Part shown: positions 269 to 23,528 of the stretch, piece by piece
How the letters are laid out: the number at the start of each line of letters is the position of its first letter
How positions within the stretch are numbered: position 1 is the stretch's first letter
Assembly: GCF_018336915.1 (NCBI RefSeq)
Contig: NZ_CP064923.1
Location: 2,490,001 to 2,522,000, forward strand
DNA from: Acaryochloris marina S15
GTDB lineage: Bacteria; Cyanobacteriota; Cyanobacteriia; Thermosynechococcales; Thermosynechococcaceae
Reading direction: 5' to 3'
Length of the DNA: 32,000 nt
Translations under genes and position numbers: made by a program
Notes under the pieces: generated by a model
The model's database searches: none
Told to the model about the DNA's origin: nothing
Seen by the model: only the letters and a program-made list of their open reading frames with translations

Positions 269-1513
269 TTGGCAATCTCCTTTATGTTGAATCCCTCTTT
301 GACTATTCTTTATCAGATTGATCCCCTCGATATCAGCATCGGTGGTATCCAGACAACCATTCTGAATTTTATTAAGTATGCGCCTCAAGATTTCGATATT
401 CGATTGGTAGGGATCTCATCTAGAAAAGAGTGCGAAATTGGTCGCTGGCAGAGTGTTTTAGTGTTTGACAGGCAGATACAGTATCTTCCTCTACTTTATG
501 TTAAAGATGATAATGTGAGAGGTCTTATACCCACTACGCTGAAATTTCTTCTAGCGTTGTTTGGAAAAGAGTTAGACTCTGACTTTCTGCATTTTCATAG
601 AATTGAACCTTCCTTAGTATCTATGAATTGGCATGGAGAAAAGACATTGTTTATTCATGCAGACATAAAAAAGCAAGTTAATGGTCAGGGAGATAATAAA
701 GCTTTTTTATGGAGATATTTTCCTTCGGCATACTTCTTTTTTGAAAATTTTCTAATTAAGCAATTCTCTTATGTGCTGTCATGTAACTCAGAATCACTTC
801 AGTATTTTCGGGAAACTTACTGCTCTACCGAAGATCGGTATCAGTTGATCCGAAATACTGTAGATGATGAAATCTTTTTCCCACTATCTACTCCACTGAA
901 AGACCAGAAGCGTCTGCAGCTAATAGCGGAAATGGGGTTGTCACTGGGAACACGTTTCATGGCCTATGTGGGGCGATTGCATCCTCAAAAGGATCCATTG
1001 TTATTAGTTAGATCAATCGCAGAACTCGATGATGCCAATATTCATCTACTTATGATTGGAGAAGGTGAATTAAAAGAAGATATTGAGTCAGAAATCAAAT
1101 ATTTAGGGCTAGATAGTCAAATAACTTTGTTGGGAGCTATGAATTCGCGAGAAATCGCAGATATTCTTAGAGTCAGTGAACTTTTAGCCCTAACCAGTAT
1201 CTATGAAGGTCTACCTATGGTCGTATTGGAGGCCCTCTCCTGTGGAATTCCAGTCGTTTCCACAGATTCAGGTGAAACCTCTAAACTTTTGACGGAGAAC
1301 ACAGGAGTTGTAATTCCAACTAGAACACCTGAATCTACCGCTGATTCTCTCAGGACTGTGTTGAGAAACTCTCAAAGTTTTCCTAGCAAAGCTTGTGCCC
1401 AATCATCTAGTCCCTACTGGGCTAGGTGGGTTGTTTCTGAAGTCTATAACGAAATGCGAGAACGATGGAAAAACAAACAGCAATTATTAGAGAAAACTTT
1501 CTCGACAGTGTAA
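269..1513 (+). CDS. Glycosyltransferase, GT-B fold, GT4-like (glycosyl transferase group 1)
   Basis: 414-aa ORF. The C-terminal half has the group-1 GT signature: YVGRLHPQKD and SIYEGLPMVVLEALSCGIPVVSTD (E-x7-E region). The ORF-track start is a TTG at 269 and the first ATG is at 284, so the start is uncertain by 5 codons. Confidence 0.8.
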   Translation: MAISFMLNPSLTILYQIDPLDISIGGIQTTILNFIKYAPQDFDIRLVGISSRKECEIGRWQSVLVFDRQIQYLPLLYVKDDNVRGLIPTTLKFLLALFGKELDSDFLHFHRIEPSLVSMNWHGEKTLFIHADIKKQVNGQGDNKAFLWRYFPSAYFFFENFLIKQFSYVLSCNSESLQYFRETYCSTEDRYQLIRNTVDDEIFFPLSTPLKDQKRLQLIAEMGLSLGTRFMAYVGRLHPQKDPLLLVRSIAELDDANIHLLMIGEGELKEDIESEIKYLGLDSQITLLGAMNSREIADILRVSELLALTSIYEGLPMVVLEALSCGIPVVSTDSGETSKLLTENTGVVIPTRTPESTADSLRTVLRNSQSFPSKACAQSSSPYWARWVVSEVYNEMRERWKNKQQLLEKTFSTV

Positions 1514-1574
1514 TTTTCGATAGCTTTGTCTCGGATGAATCTGGGCGTCATTACTTCGAAGCTGCGAGAACAGC

Positions 1575-1618
1575 CCCCGACGCCAATCTGAGACTGCTCT
1601 CTTAACTCCCAAGTACTT
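1575..1618. repeat. Intergenic direct repeat, copy A (CCCCGACGCCAATCTGAG...GCTC...CCCAAGTACTT)
   Basis: An 18-nt block at 1575-1592 is identical to 1816-1833. A second 11-nt block at 1608-1618 is identical to 1843-1853. Between the blocks there are 2 substitutions and a 6-nt length difference. Confidence 0.85.
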
Positions 1619-1815
1619 ATATAGGAGCCTGATCCCATGCTAGCAGCAATTTTCAGTGATATTAGTCAATTCAGATCTAACCCATTAGATAGCTTGAGCT
1701 AAAAAGCAATGTTGAATTCAAGTTGAATGCCATGAAAAACTATATTTCCAAGTTTGTAATGTTGCTTTAATTTGAATATCTCTTAACACTCAAACGATTT
1801 AGTTTTATCTGCGGT

Positions 1816-1853
1816 CCCCGACGCCAATCTGAGTCCGCTCAACCCAAGTACTT
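1816..1853. repeat. Intergenic direct repeat, copy B
   Basis: Same blocks as copy A, about 241 bp downstream. It ends 24 nt upstream of the ATG at 1877. Both copies end in the palindrome AAGTACTT. Confidence 0.85.
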
Positions 1854-1876
1854 GATGTCATGAATAAGGTTGCCAA

Positions 1877-3058
1877 ATGAAAGTTGCCGTTATTGGACCA
1901 AAGGGTCTACCTGCAAAGCAAGGTGGAATAGAACATCACTGTTCAGAGGTTTATCCTCGGATGGTTGCCCAAGGAAATTCTGTTGTTCTGTTTGCCAGAT
2001 CTTCTTATACAAATCTGTCGTGGTTCAAAAGAACCTCCTATGAGGGGGTAGAGGTTGTAAACCTTCCCAGCATTTGGCTGCGGGGGATTGACGCTTTTCT
2101 ATCTTCTTTTATTGCTACAATATCGGCTTCTCTTGGACAATATAATATTGTTCACTTTCATGCATTAGGTCCTTCTTTATTCTGTTGGTTACCCAAATTA
2201 AATCCTTTTCAGAAACCTCCCAAAATTGTCGTAACGTGTCAAGGCTTAGACTGGCAAAGGGCGAAATGGGGAACATTCTCTAGCACCGTTATTAGACTGG
2301 GTGAAAGAGCAGCTGCTATGTTCGCAGATGAAATAACAGTTGTTTCAAGAGAACTTGAAGCTTATTTTTGGCATACTTATCAACGAAAGACAGTCTATAT
2401 TCCCAATGCACCAGCTACCTATAAAAATTCAGATCCTGACTTTAGGTTCGGGAAATCTCTAGGCTTAGAATCTGGAAAATATTTTATTTTTTTAGGCAGG
2501 CTTGTTCCTGAAAAACGACCTGAACTCCTCATTGAAGCATTTAAGAGAATAGAAAATTGTGGTTGGAAGTTAGTACTGGTTGGCGGAGTTAGCGATACAA
2601 CGGTCTATCACAAAGAACTCTTGACGAGGGCTGAGAATAGAGAGGATGTTGTGTTTGCAGGCGAGCTAAAAGGTGAACGGTTAGCAGAGCTTGTTAGAGG
2701 CGCTGGGTTATTTACCTTGCCTTCAGATTTAGAGGGGTTGCCATTAGCAATGTTGGAAGCAATGCGGGAAGGTATTCCTATCCTCGCAAGTGATATCTTG
2801 GCACATCGTCAGTTGCTTGGTAACGATAGAGGTATGTTGTTTCAAGCAGGAAATCTTCAATCTTGCATTGATAGCATTGATTTTGCATTAAAAGATTTAG
2901 AAAAACTCTCCCAAATGGCTAATAGAGCTAAACAGCATGTTGCTGAAAACTATACTTGGCAAAAAATTACTGCTGACAACTTAGATCTCTATTCGGCTCT
3001 TTTAAGATCAGATTATTCTCTTCATCCTGAAGAAAGTGAAACTGTAGATGTGAAGTAA
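1877..3058 (+). CDS. Glycosyltransferase, GT-B fold, GT4-like
   Basis: 393-aa ORF with ATG start. It begins MKVAVIGPKGLPAKQGGIEHH. It carries FLGRLVPEKRPELL and PSDLEGLPLAMLEAMREGIPILASD (E-x7-E region). Confidence 0.85.
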   Translation: MKVAVIGPKGLPAKQGGIEHHCSEVYPRMVAQGNSVVLFARSSYTNLSWFKRTSYEGVEVVNLPSIWLRGIDAFLSSFIATISASLGQYNIVHFHALGPSLFCWLPKLNPFQKPPKIVVTCQGLDWQRAKWGTFSSTVIRLGERAAAMFADEITVVSRELEAYFWHTYQRKTVYIPNAPATYKNSDPDFRFGKSLGLESGKYFIFLGRLVPEKRPELLIEAFKRIENCGWKLVLVGGVSDTTVYHKELLTRAENREDVVFAGELKGERLAELVRGAGLFTLPSDLEGLPLAMLEAMREGIPILASDILAHRQLLGNDRGMLFQAGNLQSCIDSIDFALKDLEKLSQMANRAKQHVAENYTWQKITADNLDLYSALLRSDYSLHPEESETVDVK

Positions 3059-3234: not shown

Positions 3235-5358
3235 ATGAACGAATCTGTTTCAAAAGTATTCAAAATAATTCATAGGAATCGTTGGACTACAGCAGGGACC
3301 TTTCTATCTGTTTTTACTGGGATAGTAGTGTATCTGCTGATTACTCCTCGTCTTTATTCAGCAAAGGTTCGGTTAATTCTGGATCAAAGGCCAGCCACTA
3401 GTATTTCCCCTCTAGGCCGTGATATTGCTCAGACGCCAGGGGATAACAACAAAGGGTTAGCAACACAAGAAGAGCTTGTCCGCTCAAAAAGTGTTCTCAC
3501 AAAAGCTATTGTCCTGTTTAATCAAAGCAATGAAGATAGTGCAGTTGAGAAAGTTACTTTAGGCGAAGCTAAGCAAGAAGTTTCCACTGAGGTTATTCCT
3601 GGCACTCAGATCATTGAGATTTCATTTCGGCATACTGATCCACAAGTCACTTCTTCATTATTGAATCTGATCGCCTCGAGTGTTATTCAAGAAAATGCAG
3701 AGACTATTCGATCTGAAGCAAGGGCTACACGACAATTTTTAGAGAATCAAATTCCTCGCAGGCAACAGGAACTCGTTAAAATTGAATCTTCTATCAGTCA
3801 GTTTAAGCAACAATACAACATTGTTTCACTAGAGGAAACAGATAATAAGCGCTTGACGCAGAGTATTGCTGAAGCAGAAAAAGTTGCTGAGGAGATATCG
3901 GCTGAATTAAAGCAAGTACAAGCCCGGGGATTGGCACTCAGCAAAATCATAGACCAAAGTTCTGACAAAGAATCCTACTTATCGACAAAGGCAGGACAGA
4001 ACCCTGAGCTAATTAGTTTGAGAGATCAACTGTCTAACCTGGAGTCGCAGTTAAAGATCAAGCGAGAGAGTTTAACGGATGATCATCCCGATATACAAAA
4101 GCTAATAACTGAAAAGGAAGCTGCACAAGCACTGTACCAACAAAAGTTATCAACCATACTGCCTGGGAGTAGCTTGAATTCGAATGGTACGGTTCAGGTT
4201 GCGAATGAGAAAGTTGCCCAAGAATTGTCAGAAAAATTAGTCCTTAGTGTTGTAGAAAGAAATGAGCTTAGGGACAAACTGGCCAATACAAGATCCTATA
4301 TTTCTACGTTAGATGCTAGGCGAAAGCAGTATCCAGTCTTGGAAAAGACTTTAGCCTCATTGCAAAGAAAAAAAGAAGGGTCAACAGAATCAGTTAATCT
4401 CCTGCGTCAGAAGCTTGATGAGGCACGTATTGCAGAAGCGCAACTAGTTAGTAATCTGAGAATTATTGAGGAAGCGAATAAGCCAACGTTACCTTCATAT
4501 CCTAATATTCCTAGTTTTCTCGTGCTAGGCATTATGGCTGCTGTTGCACTGTCAGCGGGGGTCACTTTAAGTGCTGAAGGTATGGATGGACGGCTAAGAG
4601 ACTTAGAGAATGTAGAGGAGCTAGCAAAAGTACCTTTGTTAGGTGTAATACCCCTGCAAAAGAGTAGTCGTTTGTTCCCAGCATTACCCTTTGCTGAACT
4701 CTATAATAACTTGCCATTATTGGAATCAGTAAGAGGTTTGTCTAAGAATATTGAGTATAAAAATTCAACTGAAAGCAAGGTTTTAGTTATAACGAGTGCG
4801 ATTTCAGGTGAGGGTAAATCATTTGTGGCAGCAAACCTAGCTGTTCTATCGGCAATGCTATCGAAAAAAACCTTATTAATTGATGCTGATATGCGGCGCC
4901 CTACCATCCATAAGCTTTTTCAAGTCTCTCAGGATCCTGGATTGCAAGATTATCTAAGAGGCGCAGTAAATGAAGGTTTGCCCTCAGCGATCCATAGCAC
5001 ATCAATTAAGAATTTATCAGTGATGACTTCTGGGAAATTTTCATATGATAATGTCTTCTCTTTTGAAACCCAAAGAGCTAAGGAACTATTGGCTGAGGTG
5101 GAACAACATTACGATGTGATTGTTATTGATACTCCGCCAGTCATGGCTTGTTCTGATGCTTTAGTATTGAGTCAAGGAGATCGTCAAACAATTATGGTTG
5201 CTAGGCTTGACGTCACTCCTAAGCAAGTTCTGAATCGATCTATAGACATCTTAAATTCTAATAATGTCAATGTTGTAGGACTGGCAATAAATGGTGTATC
5301 TTCCTCAACTGACAAATATTATCGGTACTTAAAAGAAGATTATGCATTGGCAGCATGA
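3235..5358 (+). CDS. wzc: Polysaccharide co-polymerase / tyrosine autokinase (PCP-2a, Wzc/GumC-type)
   Basis: 707 aa. It has an N-terminal TM segment plus a Wzz-like region, then a long coiled-coil-like Q/E/K/L-rich segment, then a second TM (FLVLGIMAAVALSAGV). The C-terminal BY-kinase domain has Walker A ITSAISGEGKSF, Walker A' LLIDADMRRP and Walker B YDVIVIDTPP. The tail is Tyr-rich (DKYYRYLKEDY). Confidence 0.9.
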   Translation: MNESVSKVFKIIHRNRWTTAGTFLSVFTGIVVYLLITPRLYSAKVRLILDQRPATSISPLGRDIAQTPGDNNKGLATQEELVRSKSVLTKAIVLFNQSNEDSAVEKVTLGEAKQEVSTEVIPGTQIIEISFRHTDPQVTSSLLNLIASSVIQENAETIRSEARATRQFLENQIPRRQQELVKIESSISQFKQQYNIVSLEETDNKRLTQSIAEAEKVAEEISAELKQVQARGLALSKIIDQSSDKESYLSTKAGQNPELISLRDQLSNLESQLKIKRESLTDDHPDIQKLITEKEAAQALYQQKLSTILPGSSLNSNGTVQVANEKVAQELSEKLVLSVVERNELRDKLANTRSYISTLDARRKQYPVLEKTLASLQRKKEGSTESVNLLRQKLDEARIAEAQLVSNLRIIEEANKPTLPSYPNIPSFLVLGIMAAVALSAGVTLSAEGMDGRLRDLENVEELAKVPLLGVIPLQKSSRLFPALPFAELYNNLPLLESVRGLSKNIEYKNSTESKVLVITSAISGEGKSFVAANLAVLSAMLSKKTLLIDADMRRPTIHKLFQVSQDPGLQDYLRGAVNEGLPSAIHSTSIKNLSVMTSGKFSYDNVFSFETQRAKELLAEVEQHYDVIVIDTPPVMACSDALVLSQGDRQTIMVARLDVTPKQVLNRSIDILNSNNVNVVGLAINGVSSSTDKYYRYLKEDYALAA

Positions 5359-5399: not shown

Positions 5400-6764
5400 A
5401 TGACTATATTCGAACTAAATAAAAAAAATATTAGCTTTTTTTTACTTTCGTTGTTGGTTGCTTTGGCAACAGCAGCGTGGGGAGAAGTGACTTTACAGCT
5501 ATTAATTTTATTGATAGTTGCTGCAGCTATTTTAGCTTTTTTTCTGAAAGAAATTGAAATCAGCATACTTTTTTTGCTTGTACTTAGAAGCTCACTTGAT
5601 TTCTTTACTCAACTTAAGATACCTGCTGCTTATGGAGTTGGGATCGAGTTATTAGCAATATGCTATATGGTTTTTTGTTTTATAAGAAATAAATCAATAC
5701 AAACAGACTCTTTTGGGTGGTTATTGTTGGGCTGGACCCTTTTCCAAGGGTTATGGCTATTTTTAATGCCAGTAGATGCATTGGGATTTGATGCAACCTA
5801 CTTAGCTGAAAGTGTTAGAGAGTGGCTAAGAATATTGATATGGCCAACCGCATACTTTCTCGTAATGCAGTTAAAAGGGAAGGTCTCACCTCAAAAGATT
5901 CTCTCTGTCTTATTGCTGGCCTTACCTTTACCAATTTTACTGGCATTATTTCAGTTAAAAAATGGAATAGTAAGAATTAATTCAACTTTTGCCCATGCGA
6001 ATGCGTTCGCTTCATTTCTCTTGTTGTTTATGGGGATAGTATGGTGGAAATATAAAAATTCTACTAGATTTAAGTGGTTATGGATTACTCTATTAGGGAT
6101 AATCTCATTTTTATTGATTAGCACTAAAGCATTGTTCGTTTTAATGATGTTGCTAGTGTCTTTATTGGTGATCATTATTCCTAAATTGAGCTTAAAAAGT
6201 TTGATTTTTGGAGTTTTAAGTTTTTCTCTTGTAATCAGTTTATTTTCTAGTACAGACTATGGAAAGTCAAGACTGGAATCTATTGCAAGTACGCCTTTGC
6301 TAAATCCAGAGATTAGTATTAATAGAGGGATTCTTCTTTCCGAATCTGACCACAATAGTTTTAACTGGCGCTTATCTCATTGGCATACAGTTTTAAAGGC
6401 ATGGGAAAAACGCCCATTCCTTGGCTATGGCCTAGGACTAAGCAAGCAATCTATCGACAGTAAGTATTTACCACATAATGACTATATAAGAGCATTGATT
6501 GAGGGTGGAATATTAGGGATTTTTTCTTATTTAGTATTGTGGAGTTTATATCTTGCGCAATCAATTAAAGTAGTCCGATCTTCTACTTTAGACTCACACA
6601 AAGATTTGAGTCTAGTTGTTGCTGCTCTAGTTGTTGCAGTTTTAGTAGGAATGGTAACAGAAAACATATGGAGTCATACGGTGTTTTTCTTCTATTTTTC
6701 TGTCTTGTTTGCAATATCAAGCTGGGATTGGAGTTCGCCGGATATATTATGCCTTAATAATTAG
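5400..6764 (+). CDS. Polytopic membrane protein of the O-antigen ligase / Wzy polymerase family (Wzy_C-like)
   Basis: 454 aa and very hydrophobic, with about 10 or more predicted TM stretches. A loop NSFNWRLSHWHTVLKAWEKRPFLGYGLG is followed by HNDYIRALIEGGILGIFSYL, which is typical of O-antigen ligase/polymerase-like proteins. Confidence 0.75.
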   Translation: MTIFELNKKNISFFLLSLLVALATAAWGEVTLQLLILLIVAAAILAFFLKEIEISILFLLVLRSSLDFFTQLKIPAAYGVGIELLAICYMVFCFIRNKSIQTDSFGWLLLGWTLFQGLWLFLMPVDALGFDATYLAESVREWLRILIWPTAYFLVMQLKGKVSPQKILSVLLLALPLPILLALFQLKNGIVRINSTFAHANAFASFLLLFMGIVWWKYKNSTRFKWLWITLLGIISFLLISTKALFVLMMLLVSLLVIIIPKLSLKSLIFGVLSFSLVISLFSSTDYGKSRLESIASTPLLNPEISINRGILLSESDHNSFNWRLSHWHTVLKAWEKRPFLGYGLGLSKQSIDSKYLPHNDYIRALIEGGILGIFSYLVLWSLYLAQSIKVVRSSTLDSHKDLSLVVAALVVAVLVGMVTENIWSHTVFFFYFSVLFAISSWDWSSPDILCLNN

Positions 6765-6794: not shown

Positions 6795-7694
6795 ATGCTT
6801 ATGTATGAAATTAAAAAGAGTTTAAATATTGAGCATGTCACCTTGGATTTATATCTTATCTATGTGTTGAAATTTTTATATCAAAAGATTTTTTATCTTA
6901 CCTGTCCTGAACAACAAATTCTTATGATTATTGGCTGCCAACGTTCAGGCACAAGCTTAATTAATCGGATTTTTGCAAGAGATTTTCATGTCAGTGTATA
7001 TAGAGAATCTAGCTGTCTTTCATCTAATGATTCAACTCATTCTGGGCATTTGAAGCTAAGACTGAATTCATTCCAGTCTTTGGAAGCAGAGTTGTTGAAA
7101 GATAAATCTCCTACCATTGTTTTAAAGCCGTTAGTAGAAACACAAAATATTTTGTGTTTATTAAATCACTTTCCTCAATCAAAAGCTTTATGGATGTATA
7201 GGGATTATAGAGATGTCGTAAACTCATTTTTGAATAAATTTAATCTTAATGTAGGTATAAGAAATATCAAAGCTATTGTTGATGGGAATACGGGGTTTTG
7301 GTACTCGGAATCGATCCCTTCTTCTGTTCGCTCTACCTTGATTAAATTCTATAAGGATGATATTCAACCTACTGATGCGATTGCTCTATTTTGGTATGTC
7401 AGAAATGCATTCTTTTTTGAGTTAGAGCTTAATCAGAATTCAAGAGTGATGATGTGTAAGTACGAGCATATGGTTTGTTATTCAAATCAATTCTTAAACC
7501 ATATCTATTCCTTTTTAGGGAAAAAGTTTCGAGATGAAAATACTTGGGAGATTAATGCATGTTCTGTGGGCAAAGGTAAGTCTATAGATTTATCAGAAGA
7601 TATCCAGGAATTATGTGATGGCTTACTTAATAGGCTTGATCAGTCATTCACTTTGCAAATGACTAACGGTCAACCTTCCCCTATATTGTCCTAG
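6795..7694 (+). CDS. Sulfotransferase (P-loop type, PAPS-dependent), type 1 of 3 in this locus
   Basis: 299 aa. It has a 5'-phosphosulfate-binding loop MIIGCQRSGTSL and a downstream WMYRDYRDVVNS (3'-PB-like) segment. The N-terminal ~40 codons are AT-rich and contain a MITE-TIR-like 14-mer, so the start is uncertain. Confidence 0.7.
   Translation: MLMYEIKKSLNIEHVTLDLYLIYVLKFLYQKIFYLTCPEQQILMIIGCQRSGTSLINRIFARDFHVSVYRESSCLSSNDSTHSGHLKLRLNSFQSLEAELLKDKSPTIVLKPLVETQNILCLLNHFPQSKALWMYRDYRDVVNSFLNKFNLNVGIRNIKAIVDGNTGFWYSESIPSSVRSTLIKFYKDDIQPTDAIALFWYVRNAFFFELELNQNSRVMMCKYEHMVCYSNQFLNHIYSFLGKKFRDENTWEINACSVGKGKSIDLSEDIQELCDGLLNRLDQSFTLQMTNGQPSPILS
6831..6844. repeat. Solo copy of the left terminal-inverted-repeat core of the 9313-9434 element
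   Basis: GAGCATGTCACCTT is identical (14/14) to 9315-9328. I found no partner inverted repeat nearby. Confidence 0.6.
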
Positions 7695-7743: not shown

Positions 7744-8277
7744 ATGAACCAACTTTTGACATATATTTTTCAAGACTGGGAGGTTAATAAGCAGACTAGT
7801 TTAAAGTCACGGCTTGTGCTTTCTTCCTTTAGAGCTTCTCAATTATTATCAAAGCTGCCCTATCCGTTTAGATTGGTAACTTATCTATATCAGATTTTTG
7901 CTGAAATTCTATTTGCAATAGAACTACCTTTTGATACCAAAATTGGCAGTAATTTACAGCTTCAGCATGGATTTAGTCTTGTCGTTAATCACGCTACAAC
8001 TATTGGTAGTAATTGCATAATTCGGCACTCTACTACGATTGGAAATAAGATTTTATGTGATGGTTCTACCTCTTCTTCTCCGGTTATTGGTGACAATGTT
8101 GAAATTGGTTGTAATGTTGTTATTCTTGGACCCATAGAGATTGGTAATAATGCTGTAATTGGAGCAGGAGCCATTGTGGTATCAAATGTTCCAGAACATG
8201 CTGTAGTAGCTGGTAATCCGGCCAAAATTATTCGATTAAATAGCATTCATTCTGACTTGTCATACGTTAACAGATAG
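7744..8277 (+). CDS. Hexapeptide-repeat O-acetyltransferase (left-handed beta-helix, CysE/WcaB-like)
   Basis: 177 aa. The C-terminal two thirds are imperfect hexapeptide repeats: IGSNCIIRHSTTIGN, VIGDNVEIGCNVVILGPIEIGNNAVIGAGAIVVSNVPEHAVVAGNPAKII. Confidence 0.85.
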   Translation: MNQLLTYIFQDWEVNKQTSLKSRLVLSSFRASQLLSKLPYPFRLVTYLYQIFAEILFAIELPFDTKIGSNLQLQHGFSLVVNHATTIGSNCIIRHSTTIGNKILCDGSTSSSPVIGDNVEIGCNVVILGPIEIGNNAVIGAGAIVVSNVPEHAVVAGNPAKIIRLNSIHSDLSYVNR

Positions 8278-9338: not shown

Positions 9339-9434
9339 TATTTATACTCATCTCAAAAATCCTTGCTAGCCTTGCTTTCAGGCATCAAATTTTTAATTCC
9401 AAACTTTGTGCATTTGCAAAGGTGACATGCTCCC
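9313..9434. mobile_element. 122-bp MITE-like non-autonomous element with 18-bp perfect terminal inverted repeats
   Basis: The left end GGGAGCATGTCACCTTTG (9313-9330) is the exact reverse complement of CAAAGGTGACATGCTCCC (9417-9434). The element is flanked by a 9-bp direct duplication, has no ORF and has an AT-rich interior. Confidence 0.8.
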
Positions 9435-15828: not shown

Positions 15829-16920
15829 ATGGTCCTAGGCGTTAGTATTATTATTTGCTGTTATAACAGTGCTCAGGAGCTACCACAGACCCTTCAGAAT
15901 CTAGTATTACAACAAGTCTCGGCTGACGTGCCCTGGGAAGTGGTAATCATCGATAATGCTTCAACGGATGCGACAGCAAAAGTAGCCCAATCTCTTTGGC
16001 CAAACTCTGCACCTGCTCCGCTCAGGATTGTCCATGAATCTAATTTGGGGCTAATCAATGCACGGTATAGAGCATTATCAGAAGCTCAATATGAGATTCT
16101 CAGTTTTATCGATGATGATAACTGGATTTGTTCAAATTGGGTGCAGACAGTCTCAGAGTTGATGTCTCATAATTCTGAGATTGGGGCATGTGGCAGCCAT
16201 AATATTCCGGCATTTGATGGGGAAAAACCTTGGTGGTTTGACCTAAGTTCTAGAAGTTATGCGGTTGGTAAACAAGGGCCTGATGAAGGAGGAGATATTA
16301 CTGGGTCAAGAGGGAGGTTAATTGGTGCAGGACTAACGATTCGCAAGTGTGCATGGCAACAACTTGTTGATAAAGGATTCAACTCTTTACTCGTAGGTTG
16401 CCAGGGAAAAGCATTGAATCGAGGTGAGGATACAGAGCTAACCTTTGCTCTTGTACTAGCTGGTTGGCGAATATGGTATGAACCCCGGCTCACACTACAG
16501 CATCACTTACAAGCAGAACGGTTGCAGTGGTCTTATTTGCGCCGTTTACGTAGAAATGGAGGAAAAGCAACTATTGGCTTTGATCCTTACCGATTTGCGT
16601 TTGAAGAAAAGGGGAGCGAACATCATATTTCTTTCTGGTGGAATGTCACTAAGAAATCTGATCAAAAATTTGAGCGGCAAGTTTGGTATTTTCAGGTTGT
16701 TTCAGTCTTGAAAGAGTTGCTTTGGACACCTATGAAATTATTTACCTCCTTTTTCCGTCCGATGGAAGGAAGCTTAGATGTATTGAAAATTGAGACTAAA
16801 ATTGGCAGGTTACTAGAGCTACTAAATAATCGAAGAGCATACGATATAAATATTCAGTCTGTTAGAAATGCTGCGTGGAGAAACAAGAATTTAGAGCATA
16901 AAATTGTATTTATGAAATAA
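15829..16920 (+). CDS. Glycosyltransferase family 2 (GT-A)
   Basis: 363 aa. Motifs are VSIIICCYNS, VVIIDNASTDAT, FIDDDNW (DxD) and NRGEDTELTF. Confidence 0.85.
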   Translation: MVLGVSIIICCYNSAQELPQTLQNLVLQQVSADVPWEVVIIDNASTDATAKVAQSLWPNSAPAPLRIVHESNLGLINARYRALSEAQYEILSFIDDDNWICSNWVQTVSELMSHNSEIGACGSHNIPAFDGEKPWWFDLSSRSYAVGKQGPDEGGDITGSRGRLIGAGLTIRKCAWQQLVDKGFNSLLVGCQGKALNRGEDTELTFALVLAGWRIWYEPRLTLQHHLQAERLQWSYLRRLRRNGGKATIGFDPYRFAFEEKGSEHHISFWWNVTKKSDQKFERQVWYFQVVSVLKELLWTPMKLFTSFFRPMEGSLDVLKIETKIGRLLELLNNRRAYDINIQSVRNAAWRNKNLEHKIVFMK

Positions 16921-17021: not shown

Positions 17022-17996
17022 ATGATTAGAAAAGATAAAGGAGCATTTGTTTTAGTAATTCCTGTTCGAAATCCTCAGGACCAAAAGGTTATTGATTATA
17101 GCTGTATTGAAGCGATATTACATGAAACGGTAAGGTCACTTACCCAGCAATCCTATAGTCACACCCATATTGTTATTGTTTGCCACAAAATCCCTTCATG
17201 GGGAGGGACAATAGGAAACAATGTGACTTTTTTAAATGTCTCAAATATCCCAGCATTCCCTGCCAATAAAAATCCTGTAAGAGTAGATAAGGGATTGAAA
17301 TATATTATTGGTATTTTATATGCAAAAAATAATCTCAATCCAGATCTAGTCATGCCGATGGATGCAGATGACTATGTGAATGTTAAGCTTGCCAGTAAAT
17401 TGGTAAAAAAAGATAAATTCAATAGATTCAATAGTAATAGAGATGGATATATCTTAAAGAAAGGGCTACATGTAAACCTCCAAATTGCTGCTGACTACTC
17501 AGTGAATTATGAAGTGGCGTATTTAGTTGAGGAATTTGATCGAACCTGTGGATCTTGTAGAGTTTTTAAGACAGATGCTCTAATGAAATCAATAGAAACA
17601 ATTGATGTTGATATAGCTAGTCGATTTAGTTACTGGCCATTGCGATCGCAAAATGCATCGGTGACTGTTCCTGCTGAGCCAGTAATGTGGCTCAGTGATA
17701 TTTCTCAGCCACATTACTTAAGTGAAAATAATATTGTCAATATTTTAGGTAGGCATATCAAGCAAAGTCCATACTTTAAGTTGGCACCCCTTAACTTCGT
17801 AGGTGCAGCAAAAGGATGTGGCCATGGCAACCATGATGGCCCTAAACAAGGTGAGGTTCATATGGATAAAATTATTGGCAATATTTCTGCTCAACAATTT
17901 TGCAATAACTTTGGGATACTCAATAAAAACTATCTTAAACCAACCCACAAAAAAATAAACCTGGGTTTTCTTACGAATAAATTTCCCTTGTTTTAG
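17022..17996 (+). CDS. Divergent GT-A-like putative glycosyltransferase
   Basis: 324 aa. It has an N-terminal beta-strand motif FVLVIPVRNP and a DxD-like LVMPMDADDYV at the spacing expected for a GT-A fold. The rest is unrecognised. Confidence 0.4.
   Translation: MIRKDKGAFVLVIPVRNPQDQKVIDYSCIEAILHETVRSLTQQSYSHTHIVIVCHKIPSWGGTIGNNVTFLNVSNIPAFPANKNPVRVDKGLKYIIGILYAKNNLNPDLVMPMDADDYVNVKLASKLVKKDKFNRFNSNRDGYILKKGLHVNLQIAADYSVNYEVAYLVEEFDRTCGSCRVFKTDALMKSIETIDVDIASRFSYWPLRSQNASVTVPAEPVMWLSDISQPHYLSENNIVNILGRHIKQSPYFKLAPLNFVGAAKGCGHGNHDGPKQGEVHMDKIIGNISAQQFCNNFGILNKNYLKPTHKKINLGFLTNKFPLF
17642..17649. repeat. HIP1 octamer GCGATCGC
   Basis: Exact match. Confidence 0.95.
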
Positions 17997-18134: not shown

Positions 18135-19112
18135 TTGGTGAATAGAGAAGTGGATATGCATGAAAATATCTTAAGTTCTCAAAGAGACACAACAATCAAA
18201 CCGATTCAATGGTCTAATGTCTTGAGTTGGGCTACTGAAACTGCAAAACAAGATCGGCACTCATATCAATCTCACCCGAGATCACACTCTATCCAACGAT
18301 TAAAGGCGATGTGGACGCCTAACTTACATCAACCGTTGTTTATCATTGGTTCTCCTCGTTCTGGCACAACGTTCTTAGGAGCTTGTATTGCTGAATTACC
18401 AGAGATCTCTTATCATTTCGAACCGGTAGCATCTAAAGCTGCAGCTCGTTATGTTCACGAGGGACAGTGGGAATTCAGTAAAGCTAAGAGCTTCTATCGA
18501 GCGGTGTATGCCTGGTTGATGCGACTTCATTTTGATGCAGATTTGCGTTTTTCGGAGAAAACCCCCCGAAACTGCTTTCTAATCAACTTTTTATACCAGA
18601 TATTCCCTGACGCCCAGTTTATCCATATTATTCGAGATGGTAGAGATGCTGCCCTCTCCCATAGTCAGAAACCATGGTTACAGGCCGCTTCTGCCCAGTC
18701 CGGCAAGCGAGAGTCGAGTGGCTATCGCTACGGCCCCTATGCTCGTTTTTGGGTGGAACCTGAAAGAAAAGATGAGTTCGAAACTACAAGTGATATACAC
18801 CGCTGTATCTGGGCCTGGAGACGCCATACTGAAAGCATTCTGGCACAATCCAAAAACTTACCAAGAGCTCAATATTATGAACTTCGTTATGAAGCTTTCG
18901 TCACTTGTCCCCATGAAGAGGCTGATCGCTTGCTGAACTATCTGAATATTGTTCAATTTAGCTCTCGAGAACGCCTACATGAAGCTTTTGCTCGTGCTAA
19001 TTCCCAGTCGGTGGGGAGATGGAAAGATGCATTGACCCCTGAACAGGTAAAACAGATAGAACAGGAGGCAGGTCCGATGCTTCAAGCATTGGGGTATCTG
19101 CAGGGATCATGA
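18135..19112 (+). CDS. Sulfotransferase (P-loop type), type 3 of 3, first of a tandem pair
   Basis: It has a 5'-PSB loop FIIGSPRSGTTFLG and a 3'-PB IHIIRDGRDAALS. The ORF-track start is a TTG at 18135. An ATG at 18156 (MHENIL...) is the more likely start. Confidence 0.85.
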   Translation: MVNREVDMHENILSSQRDTTIKPIQWSNVLSWATETAKQDRHSYQSHPRSHSIQRLKAMWTPNLHQPLFIIGSPRSGTTFLGACIAELPEISYHFEPVASKAAARYVHEGQWEFSKAKSFYRAVYAWLMRLHFDADLRFSEKTPRNCFLINFLYQIFPDAQFIHIIRDGRDAALSHSQKPWLQAASAQSGKRESSGYRYGPYARFWVEPERKDEFETTSDIHRCIWAWRRHTESILAQSKNLPRAQYYELRYEAFVTCPHEEADRLLNYLNIVQFSSRERLHEAFARANSQSVGRWKDALTPEQVKQIEQEAGPMLQALGYLQGS

Positions 19113-20065
19113 AAAACGCAATAAATGTATCTAAAACAATTCAAGATCCTATTTTCTTAGTGGGTTGTCCCCGCTCAGGTACAACTCTCCTTCAGCAAAT
19201 GTTGGATGCCCATCCTGATATTGCGATCGCACCCGAAACTTTTTTTATCCGAAACTTTTGGTTAAAGCAAGACAAATATGGAAACTTAGGAGAAGACCAT
19301 AATTACTACCAGCTCGTAGAAGATATTATTTCGTTGCCAGAATTTCAAGAAATGGAATTAGATCCAGAGGTCTACCGAGCAGCTGCTTGGAAATCTTCGC
19401 GAAGTTACCCTTTGCTTTTACGTCTTCTCTTGGAACAATTTGCCCACAAAAGGGACGTAGCTATCGTTGGGGAAAAGACACCAAATCATTTGCTGTACAT
19501 ATCAATACTCCAGCAATTTTTCCCTACTGCCCGATTCGTTCATATTGTCCGGGACCCCCGAGCTGTTGTTGCATCCTGGCAAACGGTCCCTTGGACAACG
19601 GGAACCCTAGCAGGTGATGCAGCAGTGTGGCGACGTTATATGTCAACAGCAAGAGGATGCCCAGTTGCTTTGAAGCCCTCACTATATACACTTCATTACG
19701 AAGCCCTCATTGAGACCCCAAAAATCACCTTAAAAGCCCTGTGCCAATTTCTCCAAATTCAGTTCGAACCAGCCATGCTGGCGTATCATCAACAACCATC
19801 TCATACTGTTAATGCTAAGCGCGAACCCTGGAAAATTAATGCAAAAAAGCAACTAAGCCAAACCTCCTTGAGCCGTTGGCAATCCACATTATCCAACTCG
19901 ATGATTGCTGAAATTGAGGTGGTTGTTTGGCCAGAAATGATGCATTTTGGCTATAGTCCCATCACGAACCGTGTAGCCCTCGCCACTACAAAAACTTTTA
20001 AGATCGTGCAAAGTAAGTTTCAGAGGGCGATATCGCGCTTGAAATCTCCAACCCTTGGGATATAG
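19109..20065 (+). CDS. Sulfotransferase (P-loop type), type 3 of 3, second of the tandem pair
   Basis: 318 aa. Motifs are FLVGCPRSGTTLL, GEKTPNHLLY and VHIVRDPRAVVAS. Its ATG overlaps the upstream stop (ATGA at 19109-19112). Confidence 0.9.
   Translation: MKNAINVSKTIQDPIFLVGCPRSGTTLLQQMLDAHPDIAIAPETFFIRNFWLKQDKYGNLGEDHNYYQLVEDIISLPEFQEMELDPEVYRAAAWKSSRSYPLLLRLLLEQFAHKRDVAIVGEKTPNHLLYISILQQFFPTARFVHIVRDPRAVVASWQTVPWTTGTLAGDAAVWRRYMSTARGCPVALKPSLYTLHYEALIETPKITLKALCQFLQIQFEPAMLAYHQQPSHTVNAKREPWKINAKKQLSQTSLSRWQSTLSNSMIAEIEVVVWPEMMHFGYSPITNRVALATTKTFKIVQSKFQRAISRLKSPTLGI
19223..19230. repeat. HIP1 octamer GCGATCGC
   Basis: Exact match. Confidence 0.95.
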
Positions 20066-20067: not shown

Positions 20068-21357
20068 ATGAAACTTGGATATTTGCATATTGGTTCTCCT
20101 GAACATGGCGTATGTCGCTATGGACGTTTACTGGCGACAGAGGCGCGCGGATTGTCTACTCTTTCTGTCATAGAAGCTGAGGTAGAGCTAACCCTAGATC
20201 ATCGGCAAAACCGAGCAGAAATCATTAAAGCTGCAAGACATCTCTCATCGGTGGATATTGTTCATCTTCAGTACAGCATAAAAAATAACAAAGGCTTGTG
20301 GGGACTAGGTTGGACCCAGCTGACTCATCTTCGGCTTTTTAGACAGTACTGTGCACAACCACTAGTCGTCACTCTTCATGATGTTTATGACTTACCCCCC
20401 AATCCGAGCAAAATTCCTGGTTATGTCTCTCGCATCCTGCACCGGTGCTCACCCAATCTTCTGGCCAAGGGCACTCCAAATAAATCTCTATCTCAGGCAG
20501 AGAAACTTTCCTTAGCGAATCTGCTTGACTCAATTCGACAATACCGTTGGCTTGTGCAGGGAGAAATACTCAGAATCCCTGGTGACATCTCATTGTATTG
20601 GTTATTGAGACAGGTCAAATTGGTCTTTGTCTCTTCTGAAGAAGAGAGAAGACGATTGAGCCAGGGTGATATAGGTTCTACAACAGTGATTCCGCACTTT
20701 GTTGAACAGCGATCGCCGACTCTTTCCAAGAAAGAAGCCCAGCAGGCATTAAACTTGCATGGATTTCAGGTCATTACACTTCTCGGATTTATTCATGAAC
20801 GTAAGGGGCACCAGTTACTACTGAAAGCGCTTTCCCAACTCCCAGAACAGGTCATAGTGGTTTTTGCTGGGGGAGCGAGTCCTGGCAATGAACATTTTCT
20901 CAAAGACCTACTAGCCCTGGCAAAGACAGATGGCGTTGAGCATCGCTTACGTATCACGGATTATTTGTCTGAAGTTAATTTAGAGCGCTATTTGATGGCC
21001 ACAGATTTGGCTATTTGCCCATTTCAATCCTTTGCTGCCTCAGGATCACTCTCAACTTGGATCTCTGTTGGTCGATCGCTATTAGCTTTTAACCTTCCAC
21101 AAATTGCTGAATATAATCGGATCGAGCCAGATTCAATTAAAACGTTTCAACCCTACACTCCAGAAGCACTAGCGAGCGAGATTAAGCACTTATTATCCGC
21201 AGGGATTAAGGCAGAAGATATAGCTGTCGATCGGCTTAAACAAAGACTGTTATTGCCAGTCACCTTTAATCAACATCTAGTTCGTTATCAGCAAGTGGTA
21301 ACTGCCCTTAACAAGACGATTGTTCGTCCTACCCACGGCATTAAGCCTAGCTATTGA
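20068..21357 (+). CDS. Divergent GT-B-fold glycosyltransferase-like protein
   Basis: 429 aa. It has the GT1/GT4-like layout ITLLGFIHERKGHQLLLKAL ... VVFAGG ... ICPFQSFAASGSLSTWISVGRSLLAFN. The E-x7-E region is degenerate (Ser/Gly in place of Glu). The ATG is 2 nt after the upstream stop. Confidence 0.55.
   Translation: MKLGYLHIGSPEHGVCRYGRLLATEARGLSTLSVIEAEVELTLDHRQNRAEIIKAARHLSSVDIVHLQYSIKNNKGLWGLGWTQLTHLRLFRQYCAQPLVVTLHDVYDLPPNPSKIPGYVSRILHRCSPNLLAKGTPNKSLSQAEKLSLANLLDSIRQYRWLVQGEILRIPGDISLYWLLRQVKLVFVSSEEERRRLSQGDIGSTTVIPHFVEQRSPTLSKKEAQQALNLHGFQVITLLGFIHERKGHQLLLKALSQLPEQVIVVFAGGASPGNEHFLKDLLALAKTDGVEHRLRITDYLSEVNLERYLMATDLAICPFQSFAASGSLSTWISVGRSLLAFNLPQIAEYNRIEPDSIKTFQPYTPEALASEIKHLLSAGIKAEDIAVDRLKQRLLLPVTFNQHLVRYQQVVTALNKTIVRPTHGIKPSY
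20709..20716. repeat. HIP1 octamer GCGATCGC
   Basis: Exact match. Confidence 0.95.
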
Positions 21358-21379
21358 GTTTGAAAGAGGCAAATCACTT

Positions 21380-22558
21380 ATGCATTTCTCTTCATCTATA
21401 AAGCATGCATCTAGGCAGAGCCAAGCGGCTAATGAATCAACTGGGAACAGATCTGATCTGAAAATGACTGTTTACTTTGCACCCCAGTATTTGTCCATTA
21501 ATCCCTATCAAAAGCAGTTGGCTAGCTCCCTAAAAGATCTGGGAGTTCGAGTTGAGGGAGTGAATGGGATGAAGGCATTTTTACCCACAGCAATCAAATC
21601 TAGGAATCTGAACGTTGTCCATCTGCACTGGTTACATCAATACTATCGAGCCCCGGAGTTCAGAAATTTCCCTATCCTCAAGGTTTTAAGATTCCCTTTT
21701 GCATTATTGACCCTTATAAAATTTCTGTTGGGCTTAATTTTTTTGAGAATTGCGGGTGTAAAGCTTGTCTGGACTGCCCATAATCTTGAGAGCCATGAGG
21801 CTTTATTCCCTCTGTTAGACTACATTTGCAGACTGGTTGTTGTACATATATCAGATTCTGTAATTGCTCACGGTCATGCTGCTAAGTCTGCAATTGCCAA
21901 AAGATATCGGCTCAAAAAGTTAGAGAAGATACTGGTAGTTCCCCATGGAAATTACATTCAGTCCTATGACAACTCAATGGCTCAGCCTGAAGCCCGTCAG
22001 GTTTTAGGTATCGAAAATACCAGTCTTGTCTTTCTCTTTTTAGGCTTAGTGAGACCCTATAAAGGAGTAGGAGAATTAATTGAAATTTTTAATCAGTTAG
22101 AGCACCCTGATAAAACACTCATCATTGCTGGAAAAACCTTAAACGATACATTCTCTCAAGAGATCAAAGCCAAAGCTGCAACCCAAACTAACATCAAGTT
22201 CATTCCTGGCTTCGTCCCTGATGAGCGAATTCAAATATACATGAATGCCAGTGATGCTGTCGTTTTCCCTTATCGTGATGTTTTAACATCAGGCGCGGCG
22301 ATCTTAGCGATGTCTTTTGGTAAACCTTGTGTTGCTCCAAGAATGGGTTGTCTCCAAGAGATTTTAGATACTGCTGGAGCTTTTTTGTACGAACCTGATC
22401 AAACTGATGGTTTGTTGAAGGCAATGGAGCAAACAGCTTACAAAAAAACCGATTTGCTATCTATGGGAGCGCATAATCGGTGTTTAGCAGAACAATGGGA
22501 CTGGACTACTATTGCGAAGCAAACCCTCGAAATATATTTACAGAAGTCCAATGCTTAA
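21380..22558 (+). CDS. GT-B-fold glycosyltransferase (group 1-like)
   Basis: The ORF track opens at a TTG at 21320, overlapping the upstream gene by 38 nt. I prefer the ATG at 21380, which is preceded by GAAAGAGG; an ATG at 21464 is also possible. Motifs are FLFLGLVRPYKGVGELI, IIAGK and VFPYRDVLTSGAAILAMSFGKPCVAP. Confidence 0.7.
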   Translation: MHFSSSIKHASRQSQAANESTGNRSDLKMTVYFAPQYLSINPYQKQLASSLKDLGVRVEGVNGMKAFLPTAIKSRNLNVVHLHWLHQYYRAPEFRNFPILKVLRFPFALLTLIKFLLGLIFLRIAGVKLVWTAHNLESHEALFPLLDYICRLVVVHISDSVIAHGHAAKSAIAKRYRLKKLEKILVVPHGNYIQSYDNSMAQPEARQVLGIENTSLVFLFLGLVRPYKGVGELIEIFNQLEHPDKTLIIAGKTLNDTFSQEIKAKAATQTNIKFIPGFVPDERIQIYMNASDAVVFPYRDVLTSGAAILAMSFGKPCVAPRMGCLQEILDTAGAFLYEPDQTDGLLKAMEQTAYKKTDLLSMGAHNRCLAEQWDWTTIAKQTLEIYLQKSNA

Positions 22559-22610
22559 TGGATAAAGAGGCTTCAGGCTGAATATTTAATGTTTATGAAT
22601 ATGCATTGCT

Positions 22611-23528
22611 ATGTCTAATACTGTTACTCATCCAGCCATCAAGATCGCAAAACCAGAAACCATTCCATTTGTTTCAGTCATCATACCTGTGTTCAATGAT
22701 TCAGAGCGGCTGTTTCAATGTTTGCAAGCATTAGAAAATCAGACTTATCCTGGTAAAACGTATGAAGTAATTGTGGTCGACAATGCTTCTGATGATGATG
22801 TCAGTGCTGTGGTAGACCAGTTTCCCTATGCTTCCACGACCTTGGAACTCCAGCAGGGGTCTTATGCGGCTCGCAATACTGGGATTGCGATCGCAAAAGG
22901 AAACATCCTAGCCTTCACAGATGCAGACTGTATACCAGCCCCCGACTGGATTGAAAAAGGAGTTCAGAGTTTACGCGACGTTCCGAACTGTGGTCTGGTA
23001 GCTGGCAGAATTGAATTCAGCTACCAAAACCCCCAGCAGCCGAACTCCATAGAACTCTGCGATAGTGTGCTGTACTTACAGCAAGATTTGTATTTAAAGC
23101 ATGCCAAGTTTGGCGCTACGGCAAATGTCTTTACCTACAAATCAGTCTTTGCCGAAGTCGGTTTATTTGATCAAATCCTGAAATCTGGGGGGGACTATGA
23201 ATGGGGGCAACGGGTTTTTGCCGCAGGGTATCAGCAGGTCTATTCACCAGAGGCTTATGTCTATCACCCAGCTCGATATTCCTTTGAACAGCTCTACAAG
23301 AAAATCCTCAGAACAACCCGAGGTCCTTACGATTTGAGTCAGTCTAGTACCTACTCCCTGAAGAAATTTATCAAAGATATCGCTAGAGATGTTTTCCCCC
23401 CTTTCAAAACCTTTGGTCGGGCGCGGGTAGATACCGTCCAACAAAAACTGCGATTGTGGTTTGTGTTGACCTTTATCAAGCATTTAACGGCTTTAGAGCG
23501 GGTAAAGGCACAACTCAAGTTTGGCTAG
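22611..23528 (+). CDS. Glycosyltransferase family 2 (GT-A)
   Basis: 305 aa. Motifs are VSVIIPVFNDSERL, VIVVDNASDDD and FTDADCIP. Its last 111 codons lie inside unit 1 of the tandem duplication. Confidence 0.9.
   Translation: MSNTVTHPAIKIAKPETIPFVSVIIPVFNDSERLFQCLQALENQTYPGKTYEVIVVDNASDDDVSAVVDQFPYASTTLELQQGSYAARNTGIAIAKGNILAFTDADCIPAPDWIEKGVQSLRDVPNCGLVAGRIEFSYQNPQQPNSIELCDSVLYLQQDLYLKHAKFGATANVFTYKSVFAEVGLFDQILKSGGDYEWGQRVFAAGYQQVYSPEAYVYHPARYSFEQLYKKILRTTRGPYDLSQSSTYSLKKFIKDIARDVFPPFKTFGRARVDTVQQKLRLWFVLTFIKHLTALERVKAQLKFG
22887..22894. repeat. HIP1 octamer GCGATCGC
   Basis: Exact match. Confidence 0.95.

Follow-up and report, generated by a model that had tools for sequence, protein, structure and literature searches.

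A candidate locus for a sulfated heteropolysaccharide in Acaryochloris marina S15, with an ABC exporter gene in its exchangeable half

The stretch of DNA analysed here, hereafter the window, is a segment of 32,000 nucleotides of the cyanobacterium Acaryochloris marina S15 (contig NZ_CP064923.1, positions 2,490,001 to 2,522,000). Between positions 269 and 23528 it contains 19 open reading frames (ORFs) of at least 100 amino acids, all on the + strand, with intergenic gaps of -38 to 363 nucleotides, and no competing minus-strand ORF of at least 100 amino acids lies within these limits. Homology and context suggest that this array is probably a gene cluster for an anionic, sulfated heteropolysaccharide, bound to the cell surface or released. 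The product may be an exopolysaccharide (EPS), a capsule or an O-antigen-like glycan, and this type, like its sulfation, is predicted from sequence. An earlier annotation of the same DNA, which we call the original prediction, had proposed that a co-directional locus of about 20 genes makes a sulfated, acetylated heteropolysaccharide. The proposal remains the best reading, plausible and distinct from the xss cluster of Synechocystis, with two amendments: the window holds only part of the pathway, and the translocation step is not that of a canonical Wzx.

The case for sulfation is carried by four ORFs, labeled ST1 to ST4 in Table 1. Families were assigned to all ORFs of the window with Pfam profiles at their gathering cut-offs, complemented by NCBIfam and TIGR models. 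All four ORFs exceed the cut-offs of the sulfotransferase families (27 bits for PF13469, 22 bits for PF00685 and 22 bits for PF03567) with E-values ranging from 1e-10 to 5e-38, and these matches are thus far beyond chance. The two motifs that bind 3'-phosphoadenosine 5'-phosphosulfate (PAPS), namely the P-loop-like 5'-phosphosulfate-binding motif (5'-PSB) and the 3'-phosphate-binding motif (3'-PB), were located in each of them, and every PAPS loop quoted by the original prediction was found in the ORF to which it had been attributed. In ST1, the motif IGCQRSGTSL is at nucleotides 6930-6959, and a 3'-PB-like YRDYRDVVNS, which had not been reported before, is at nucleotides 7197-7226. ST1 is 82% identical to an NCBI-named sulfotransferase from Acaryochloris sp. 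CCMEE 5410 and has 181 homologues; among the matches listed, nearly all have both PF13469 and PF00685. The PF03567 match of ST2 spans profile positions 11-252 of 252, and its elements IPIPKVACSSIK, FVRNPWDRLVSCY (RNPWDRLVS) and HFRSQ are invariant across four homologues.

The other two sulfotransferases resemble the human tyrosylprotein sulfotransferases TPST1/2. ST4 matches them with an E-value of 3e-17, the 5'-PSB, the catalytic Glu and the 3'-PB being in register; ST3 has a weak match in a sequence search of the PDB, in which its motifs (nucleotides 18348-18380 and 18627-18659) are aligned to those of TPST1/2. ST4 also scores 54.6 bits against the NoeE model, under the equivalog cut-off. 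The PDB search gave no significant match for ST1 or ST2. Since ST3 and ST4 are distant paralogues (23% identity, E-value 6e-12), and BLAST detects no relationship between them and ST1 or ST2, which form separate types, the description of the locus as having four sulfotransferases of three types is accurate. The exact protein of ST2 has no public record in the look-up that we made, and those of ST4 and of the downstream protein unk376 occur only on short Logan contigs of SRR12447961. All four sulfotransferases are predicted to be soluble, which fits sulfation in the cytoplasm, where PAPS is used. The similarity to TPST raised the possibility of a RaxST-like peptide sulfation system with an ABC exporter; this candidate was rejected, the exporter of the window having no peptidase domain, no precursor peptide being evident, and the context being rich in glycosyltransferases.

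The rest of the inventory is that of a polysaccharide assembly system. Nine glycosyltransferases, four of family GT4 and five of family GT2, are firm by Pfam, and the divergent GT-A-like ORF at 17022, kept in two related loci (58% amino acid identity in L003 and 79% in L022), is a probable tenth, in agreement with the earlier estimate of about ten. The last of them, GT2e, is 79-84% identical in protein sequence in two metagenome-assembled genomes (MAGs) of Acaryochloris (L002 and L005). The hexapeptide transferase and the Wzc-like protein were also recovered, the latter with 135.6 bits against TIGR01007 (cut-off 108). This protein has a GNVR domain, a P-loop kinase domain, two transmembrane segments and the motifs of the bacterial tyrosine (BY) kinases, with a Walker A sequence GEGKS and a tyrosine-rich tail DKYYRYLKEDY; by sequence, it qualifies as a PCP-2a polysaccharide co-polymerase with a BY-kinase. 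The Wzy_C protein has about 10 hydrophobic segments and no NCBIfam match. All families listed by the original prediction are therefore present, and two genes had gone unmentioned: the ABC exporter (9475-11325) and a toroid-fold protein (11417-12610). Only three proteins of the locus, Wzc, Wzy_C and the exporter, are membrane proteins.

The exporter matches the NCBIfam equivalog model HepA_fam_ABC, described as 'heterocyst formation ABC transporter', over its full length (residues 1-610) and well above the cut-off of 725 bits. Its architecture is a fused type I ABC_membrane and ABC_tran, and no ORF of the window matches ABC2_membrane. We therefore rejected an ABC-transporter-dependent capsule or O-antigen pathway of the KpsMT or Wzm/Wzt kind, which has an ABC-2 permease with a separate ATPase. 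Flippases of the Wzx type (Polysacc_synt or MatE) have no Pfam match in any ORF of the window, and none of the Polysacc_synt type is found in the Pfam-annotated genes of related loci L012-L017, L020 and L022; in loci that have no Pfam annotation, the check was a tblastn of low sensitivity. An ABC_membrane/ABC_tran exporter accompanies sulfotransferases and glycosyltransferases in every version of the Acaryochloris locus examined, as well as in the related Leptolyngbyaceae and Lyngbya-like loci examined. The HepA loci of Calothrix and Leptothermofonsia are without sulfotransferases and have a hepC-like priming transferase directly upstream of hepA, which suggests that sulfation is a lineage-specific addition to a broader type of HepA/Wzc locus.

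Comparison with public contigs shows that the locus is a mosaic. Over positions 1-9312, the window agrees at 99.5% identity with contigs L012-L014, which come from three further samples. At the 5' end of hepA, the identity with L012 falls from about 99% to 69-78% at the nucleotide level (about 73% for hepA of the sister strains), and there is no homology beyond hepA: on the right side, L012-L014 have a different sulfotransferase and a GT4. L015, a contig of a fourth sample, has 97.7% identity in the left part and 99.1% in the right part. Two variants of the right half were distinguished: SRR17348476, SRR17348478 and SRR12447962 have variant A; SRR17348486, SRR12447961 and CCMEE 5410 have variant B. 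In Acaryochloris MAGs that are further removed, the left module is retained, as are GT2e and unk376 on the right flank, and the genes in between differ. In L005, the middle is occupied by two sulfotransferases, a pair of FrhB-like and pyruvyl-transferase genes and further glycosyltransferases; in L002, by three sulfotransferases along with two GT4 and a gene resembling methyltransferases. Sulfotransferases number three in the whole locus of L005, four in that of L002, at least two in L012, and three or four in a Leptolyngbyaceae locus (L016). The middle block of the window (toroid, ST2, GT2b-d and the GT-A-like ORF) is syntenic with a Leptolyngbyaceae MAG, at 58-73% amino acid identity.

The locus thus has a conserved left module, formed by GT4a, GT4b, Wzc, Wzy, ST1, the acyltransferase and GT2a, and a replaceable right cassette that starts with hepA and holds the remaining glycosyltransferases and sulfotransferases. 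Such a mosaic is the pattern of a surface-polysaccharide diversity locus; what is unusual is that the conserved module includes Wzy and Wzc, and that the exporter belongs to the variable part. As a consequence of the replaceable cassette, sister strains are expected to make structurally different sulfated glycans. The content of GC, 30-39% over much of the cluster (window 5000-14000) against 46-49% in the downstream flank (24000-28000), fits a horizontally exchanged polysaccharide locus.

Table 1. Features of the sulfotransferase-bearing locus, in window coordinates.
Feature	Position	Strand	Evidence and remarks
GT4 glycosyltransferase GT4a	269..1513	+	PF00534 104.6 bits; first gene of the cluster
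GT4 glycosyltransferase GT4b	1877..3058	+	PF00534 100.7 bits; 13 public contigs of several samples have the identical protein
Wzc-type polysaccharide co-polymerase with C-terminal tyrosine autokinase	3235..5358	+	GNVR, ParA/AAA_31, TIGR01007
Wzy_C-domain membrane protein, putative repeat-unit polymerase	5400..6764	+	PF04932 53.5 bits
Sulfotransferase ST1, in conserved left module	6795..7694	+	PF13469 42.1 bits, PF00685 30.9 bits
Hexapeptide-repeat acyltransferase, putative O-acetyltransferase	7744..8277	+	PF00132 50.4 bits
GT2 glycosyltransferase GT2a, C-terminus altered by insertion	8352..9338	+	PF00535 109.2 bits
MITE-like insertion, 122 nucleotides	9313..9434	.	terminal inverted repeats and target duplication
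HepA-family ABC exporter, fused transmembrane and nucleotide-binding domains (TMD-NBD), half-transporter	9475..11325	+	HepA_fam_ABC 941.7 bits; PF00664 and PF00005
Soluble (α/α)6-toroid protein beside ST2	11417..12610	+	PF00432 26.8 bits; AlphaFold2 (AF2) model
Sulfotransferase ST2, PF03567 type	12645..13379	+	PF03567 80 bits
GT2 glycosyltransferase GT2b	13692..14816	+	PF00535 108.8 bits
GT2 glycosyltransferase GT2c	14865..15821	+	PF00535 108.4 bits
GT2 glycosyltransferase GT2d	15829..16920	+	PF00535 82.3 bits
Divergent GT-A-like protein, probable tenth glycosyltransferase	17022..17996	+	PF00535 16.8 bits, sub-threshold, at PMDADDY (DADD motif)
Sulfotransferase ST3, PF13469 type	18135..19112	+	PF13469 90.4 bits
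Sulfotransferase ST4, PF13469 type	19109..20065	+	PF13469 132 bits
GT4 glycosyltransferase GT4c	20068..21357	+	PF13692 39 bits, PF00534 34.6 bits
GT4 glycosyltransferase GT4d	21320..22558	+	PF00534 60.4 bits
GT2 glycosyltransferase GT2e, conserved right flank of the variable region	22611..23528	+	PF00535 90.1 bits

Gene calls on matching public contigs give alternative starts for GT4a (284), ST1 (6801), ST3 (18138) and GT4d (21380, on L001). On the left, GT4a is preceded in L012-L015 by gyrA, a HAD hydrolase, an aminotransferase and two minus-strand genes; on the matching contigs, the distance from gyrA to the locus is about 6 kb, which places the locus on the chromosome. When 25 kb were compared with plasmids by megablast, the only match was the ISKra4 transposase, on plasmids of Acaryochloris 'Moss Beach'. 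Scans for Rfam families and tRNAs found no RNA gene, and counts of promoters and terminators were at or below the expectation from shuffled sequence, hence uninformative.

Between the two modules, the window carries an insertion that resembles a miniature inverted-repeat transposable element (MITE). It has perfect terminal inverted repeats of 18 nucleotides (GGGAGCATGTCACCTTTG) and is bracketed by a target-site duplication of 9 nucleotides (GTGTGCTAT, at 9304-9312 and 9435-9443). The element fell in the last codons of GT2a, of which about 11 C-terminal amino acids are rewritten, as seen in an alignment with L012, L015, L022 and L005, and it enlarges the gap between GT2a and hepA from 6 to 136 nucleotides. 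It is missing from all related loci examined.

A pathway can be drawn from established knowledge of Wzy-dependent systems and from the cytoplasmic location of PAPS. On the cytoplasmic side of the membrane, the nine or ten soluble glycosyltransferases would assemble a repeat unit, an oligosaccharide attached to a polyprenyl-phosphate carrier. The hexapeptide transferase would O-acetylate the unit while it is still in the cytoplasm, and the four soluble PAPS-dependent sulfotransferases would sulfate it at up to four positions. The HepA-family exporter, replacing Wzx, would then flip the charged lipid-linked unit, which the Wzy_C protein would join into a polymer. The Wzc co-polymerase and tyrosine kinase would set chain length and export through a Wza-type channel. 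This channel, the priming phosphoglycosyl transferase and the supply of PAPS would all come from elsewhere in the genome.

Several points weigh against this reading. The window has no priming transferase, no Wzx, no Wza (OPX), and, by Pfam, none of the PAPS-supply genes cysC and cysDN, as the original prediction had said of PAPS supply; the pathway as drawn consequently depends on genes outside the window. Family PF04932 also spans the WaaL ligases and the PglL-type O-oligosaccharyltransferases, so that polymerisation by ORF 5400 stays putative. We infer the flippase role of HepA, in place of Wzx, from the analogy with PglK and Wzk and from the absence of Wzx itself. Enzymes of family PF13469 also sulfate peptides, polyketides and lipo-oligosaccharides. 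The single measured EPS of an Acaryochloris isolate is low in sulfate (1.7%; PMC11034128). Finally, the MITE-like insertion could lower the expression of downstream genes in the strain of the window.

Related loci supply some of the genes that the window lacks. L020 and L007 have a Wza, and L007 and L008 have a priming transferase. The Lyngbya-like locus L020, tied to the window through its toroid, GT2c and GT4c/d genes, has a toroid, an ABC exporter that is built like the HepA of the window but only 28% identical to it, two sulfotransferases, Wzc and Wzy_C. In its segment 909-6112, directly upstream of the ABC exporter, are Wza, an adenosine 5'-phosphosulfate (APS) kinase on the minus strand and a transporter resembling CitMHS or Na-sulfate symporters. 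In that locus, sulfotransferase genes and a module for the supply of PAPS are thus physically linked.

An alternative is that the sulfated glycan is made by a route without Wzy: a complete oligosaccharide or O-antigen-like chain would arise in the cytoplasm and cross the membrane by way of the ABC exporter, in the manner of Wzk in H. pylori or PglK in C. jejuni, and the Wzy_C protein would act as a WaaL-type ligase or a PglL-type O-oligosaccharyltransferase, transferring it to lipid A-core or to a surface protein. The breadth of PF04932 leaves room for this, given a score of 53.5 bits and no NCBIfam assignment, as does the missing Wzx; ten glycosyltransferases could make a long glycan in one shot; and secreted or anchored proteins (the RTX protein, unk376 and an SLH-like neighbour) flank the locus. 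The exporter, moreover, has the fused TMD-NBD architecture of PglK, even if its 243 bits against the PglK model are far under the cut-off of 1000. However, a full-length Wzc with a BY-kinase and a tyrosine-rich tail is typical of Wzy-dependent EPS or capsule export, Wza adjoins Wzc in related loci, and the HepA of Anabaena is needed for a polysaccharide layer of the envelope, not for lipopolysaccharides or glycoproteins (PMC4390870). We consider this alternative unlikely.

It is also conceivable that some or all of the sulfotransferases are inactive, or act on other acceptors such as glycolipids, peptides or small molecules, so that the polymer is not multiply sulfated. Among PDB entries of PF13469, those nearest to ST3 and ST4 are protein-tyrosine sulfotransferases and the polyketide sulfotransferases CurM/OLS, and no solved relative of ST1 or ST2 can be detected by sequence. 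The searched text of one study reports that deletion of xssE in Synechocystis left EPS amount and bloom formation unchanged (PMC8205485), and the low sulfate of the Acaryochloris EPS points the same way. Against this, the four genes lie, with intact PAPS motifs, inside an unbroken co-directional array of glycosyltransferases, and sulfotransferases are retained, and exchanged along with glycosyltransferases, in every version of the locus. The homologous locus L020 has an APS kinase and a sulfate-transporter-like gene, the best match of ST4 to a named carbohydrate enzyme is NoeE, a sugar sulfotransferase of Nod factors, and no gene for a peptide precursor or a polyketide synthase is nearby. Such an outcome seems quite improbable to us.

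That the locus is a heterocyst envelope polysaccharide (HEP) island, or its direct counterpart, can be dismissed with near certainty: the exporter does pass the equivalog cut-off of HepA_fam_ABC and is 49-54% identical to the HepA of Calothrix and Fischerella MAGs, but its closest relatives are in non-heterocystous lineages (Acaryochloris 75-93%, with MAGs at 75-77%, Leptolyngbyaceae 64% and Pleurocapsa 57%), Anabaena sp. PCC 7120 has no sulfotransferase genes according to supplementary file 3 of PMC8205485, and the hepC-like priming transferase seen at the hepA of Calothrix and Leptothermofonsia is missing at that of the window.

The Wzy-dependent sulfated polysaccharide, our preferred reading, can now be set against known systems. 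The xss cluster for synechan, in Synechocystis sp. PCC 6803 (pSYSM sll5042-5060), is the only genetically dissected cluster that we found in the literature on cyanobacterial sulfated polysaccharides, and its product is demonstrably a sulfated EPS in the searched text of PMC8205485. This cluster has been transferred for heterologous expression (PMC13125312). Each of the two loci combines some 8-10 glycosyltransferases with a PCP/Wzc-like protein, a Wzy-like protein and PAPS-type sulfotransferases, and in both the outer-membrane exporter is encoded elsewhere. A tblastn of all window proteins against positions 35-80 kb of pSYSM gave partial matches at 20-28% amino acid identity and no conserved order, in line with the claim of a distinct gene set; ST4 (26%) and ST3 (24%) have a distant homologue in one of the xss sulfotransferases. 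The xss cluster has a Wzx, a priming sugar transferase and the regulators XssQ/R/S, whereas the window has none of them: no NACHT/STAND, response-regulator or histidine-kinase domain was found in its ORFs. What the window has in addition is a HepA-type exporter, an acyltransferase of the hexapeptide type, a toroid protein and a sulfotransferase of family PF03567; its sulfotransferases are four instead of two. The xss cluster is on a megaplasmid, the window locus on the chromosome.

In the HEP island of Anabaena sp. PCC 7120, the exporter (HepA, alr2835) likewise sits among glycosyltransferase genes for envelope or extracellular polysaccharide (PMC4390870). The differences are a non-heterocystous host lineage, no adjacent hepC-type priming transferase, the sulfotransferases of the window, against none in Anabaena 7120, and a HepA identity of about 50% to heterocystous lineages. 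With PglK of C. jejuni and Wzk of H. pylori, the exporter shares the fused ABC_membrane and ABC_tran, a glycan locus without Wzx and a partner of the Wzy_C family; its score against the PglK model shows that the two are not orthologous. What follows PglK and Wzk is an oligosaccharyltransferase or ligase step, and not the export of a polymer controlled by Wzc. The loci for group 1 capsule and colanic acid of E. coli also have a PCP-2a Wzc autokinase, a Wzy-family polymerase (putative in the window), glycosyltransferases and a hexapeptide O-acetyltransferase, and there too export genes are kept while glycosyltransferase cassettes are exchanged among strains. Unlike them, the window has no Wza, Wzb, Wzx or WbaP/WcaJ, and has its Wzy in the conserved module with an ABC exporter in the variable one; the enterobacterial systems are without sulfation.

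The novelty of the locus had been overstated. Maeda et al. 2021 (PMC8205485) had already searched cyanobacterial genomes with the same three profiles, PF00685, PF03567 and PF13469; the searched text of their paper reports that cyanobacterial sulfotransferase genes are mostly within EPS clusters, that these clusters are 'more or less partial', and that Acaryochloris strains have 13 and 6 sulfotransferase genes. In a further paper of 2026, this group states that many of the predicted clusters are still uncharacterised. The arrangement itself is already present in public genomes: on a contig with the CCMEE 5410-named homologue of ST1, gene order is conserved from GT4a to the GT-A-like ORF, at 73-93% amino acid and 82-86% nucleotide identity. 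In the searched text of PMC8205485, we found no mention of a HepA-type exporter, of the toroid family or of cassette exchange between strains. Pereira et al. 2015 describe EPS genes as scattered in cyanobacterial genomes, several strains being without an obvious Wzx or KpsM, and do not mention HepA; in a phylum-wide survey, the plasma-membrane translocation step is missing in several cyanobacteria (PMC4594306).

The toroid protein, whose position beside ST2 is conserved, has an AF2 model with a predicted local distance difference test score (pLDDT) of 93, in which the fold is an (α/α)6 toroid. Foldseek matches it, with TM-scores of 0.45-0.50, to GH76, GH88, GH105, a polysaccharide lyase, type II terpene cyclases and a prenyltransferase β; as these folds match about equally, a glycosidase-like and a terpene-cyclase/prenyltransferase-like chemistry are not separable. 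The Pfam match is a weak one to Prenyltrans. Its 122 detectable homologues belong to cyanobacteria, Deltaproteobacteria, Bacteroidota and Chloroflexota, a few being fused to GT2 or methyltransferase domains, and the invariant residues include E55, H217, C259, D261 and D263. Every context inspected is a polysaccharide locus (L016, L020, L021 and L022); L021, a contig of Tenuifilaceae (Bacteroidota), carries Wzm/Wzt and methyltransferases.

A wider conjecture, which we put forward as possible and rather doubtful, is that HepA-family exporters replace Wzx in many cyanobacterial Wzy/Wzc EPS pathways, flipping anionic lipid-linked units, sulfated or pyruvylated, the heterocyst envelope being one specialised use. 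In Acaryochloris, the exporter gene would move with the exchangeable cassette while Wzy and Wzc stay fixed, and the toroid protein would be an unrecognised accessory enzyme. If this is true, the specificity of the exporter would be co-evolving with the decoration of the glycan, and there would be natural pairs of strains for which the cassette is the sole difference.

Some further observations concern the gaps and the right flank. In the gap 1513-1877, a direct repeat of about 25 nucleotides (CCCCGACGCCAATCTGAG...), at 1575 and 1816, brackets an AT-rich sequence; the gap 13380-13691 has about 25-30% GC and exceeds its counterpart in the CCMEE 5410-like locus by some 260 nucleotides. Neither gap has a match in Rfam. 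A tandem duplication of 410 nucleotides at 23192-24011, with two copies that differ by one mismatch, extends from the 3' end of GT2e to the next start codon, and the 112-amino-acid ORF at 23600-23938 is a duplicated fragment of GT2e. MAG L005 does not have this duplication, and the two Logan contigs L001 and L018 break off at it.

The gene that follows, unk376 (23997-25127, +), encodes a membrane-anchored protein of 376 amino acids. It shares a domain of about 320 amino acids, at 53% identity, with residues 461-788 of a convergent RTX-repeat protein of 1085 amino acids (25132-28389, -). This domain has 1845 homologues, nearly all of them cyanobacterial 'hypothetical proteins', with about 80 invariant columns and no Pfam family; some are fused to GDSL or PF06439. 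Its model has a pLDDT of 84 and no PDB match (best TM-score 0.12), and a fairly confident model with no such match may be an undescribed fold. As a homologue in Nostoc sp. TCL26-01 is outside any polysaccharide locus, unk376 was not counted in the system. Farther right are a GDSL/SGNH hydrolase (29120-30430, -), which has an N-terminal hydrophobic segment and an N-terminal region of about 250 amino acids without family, and an ISKra4-family transposase (30637-31989, +), 87-88% identical in nucleotides to the 'Moss Beach' plasmid copies.

Since sulfotransferase-bearing EPS clusters were reported by Maeda et al. 2021, to the extent of the searched text of that paper, the locus is a further case of an already known kind. 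Three of its features are worth following up: the substitution of HepA for Wzx, the cassette led by hepA, exchangeable among strains that are nearly identical, and the conserved toroid protein. As materials, sulfated polysaccharides are of value, and, to our knowledge, cyanobacteria are, among bacteria, the producers that have a genetically defined pathway for them. The locus of the window offers a second template of different architecture, with four sulfotransferases of three types, an acyltransferase and an ABC exporter in the putative role of Wzx. Natural pairs of strains, with left halves that are 99.5% identical and right cassettes that differ, provide comparisons that may link sulfotransferases and glycosyltransferases to structural features of the glycans. 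HepA is a candidate for the translocation step that is missing in several cyanobacteria (PMC4594306). All these points extend a known kind of locus, and none overturns the current understanding.

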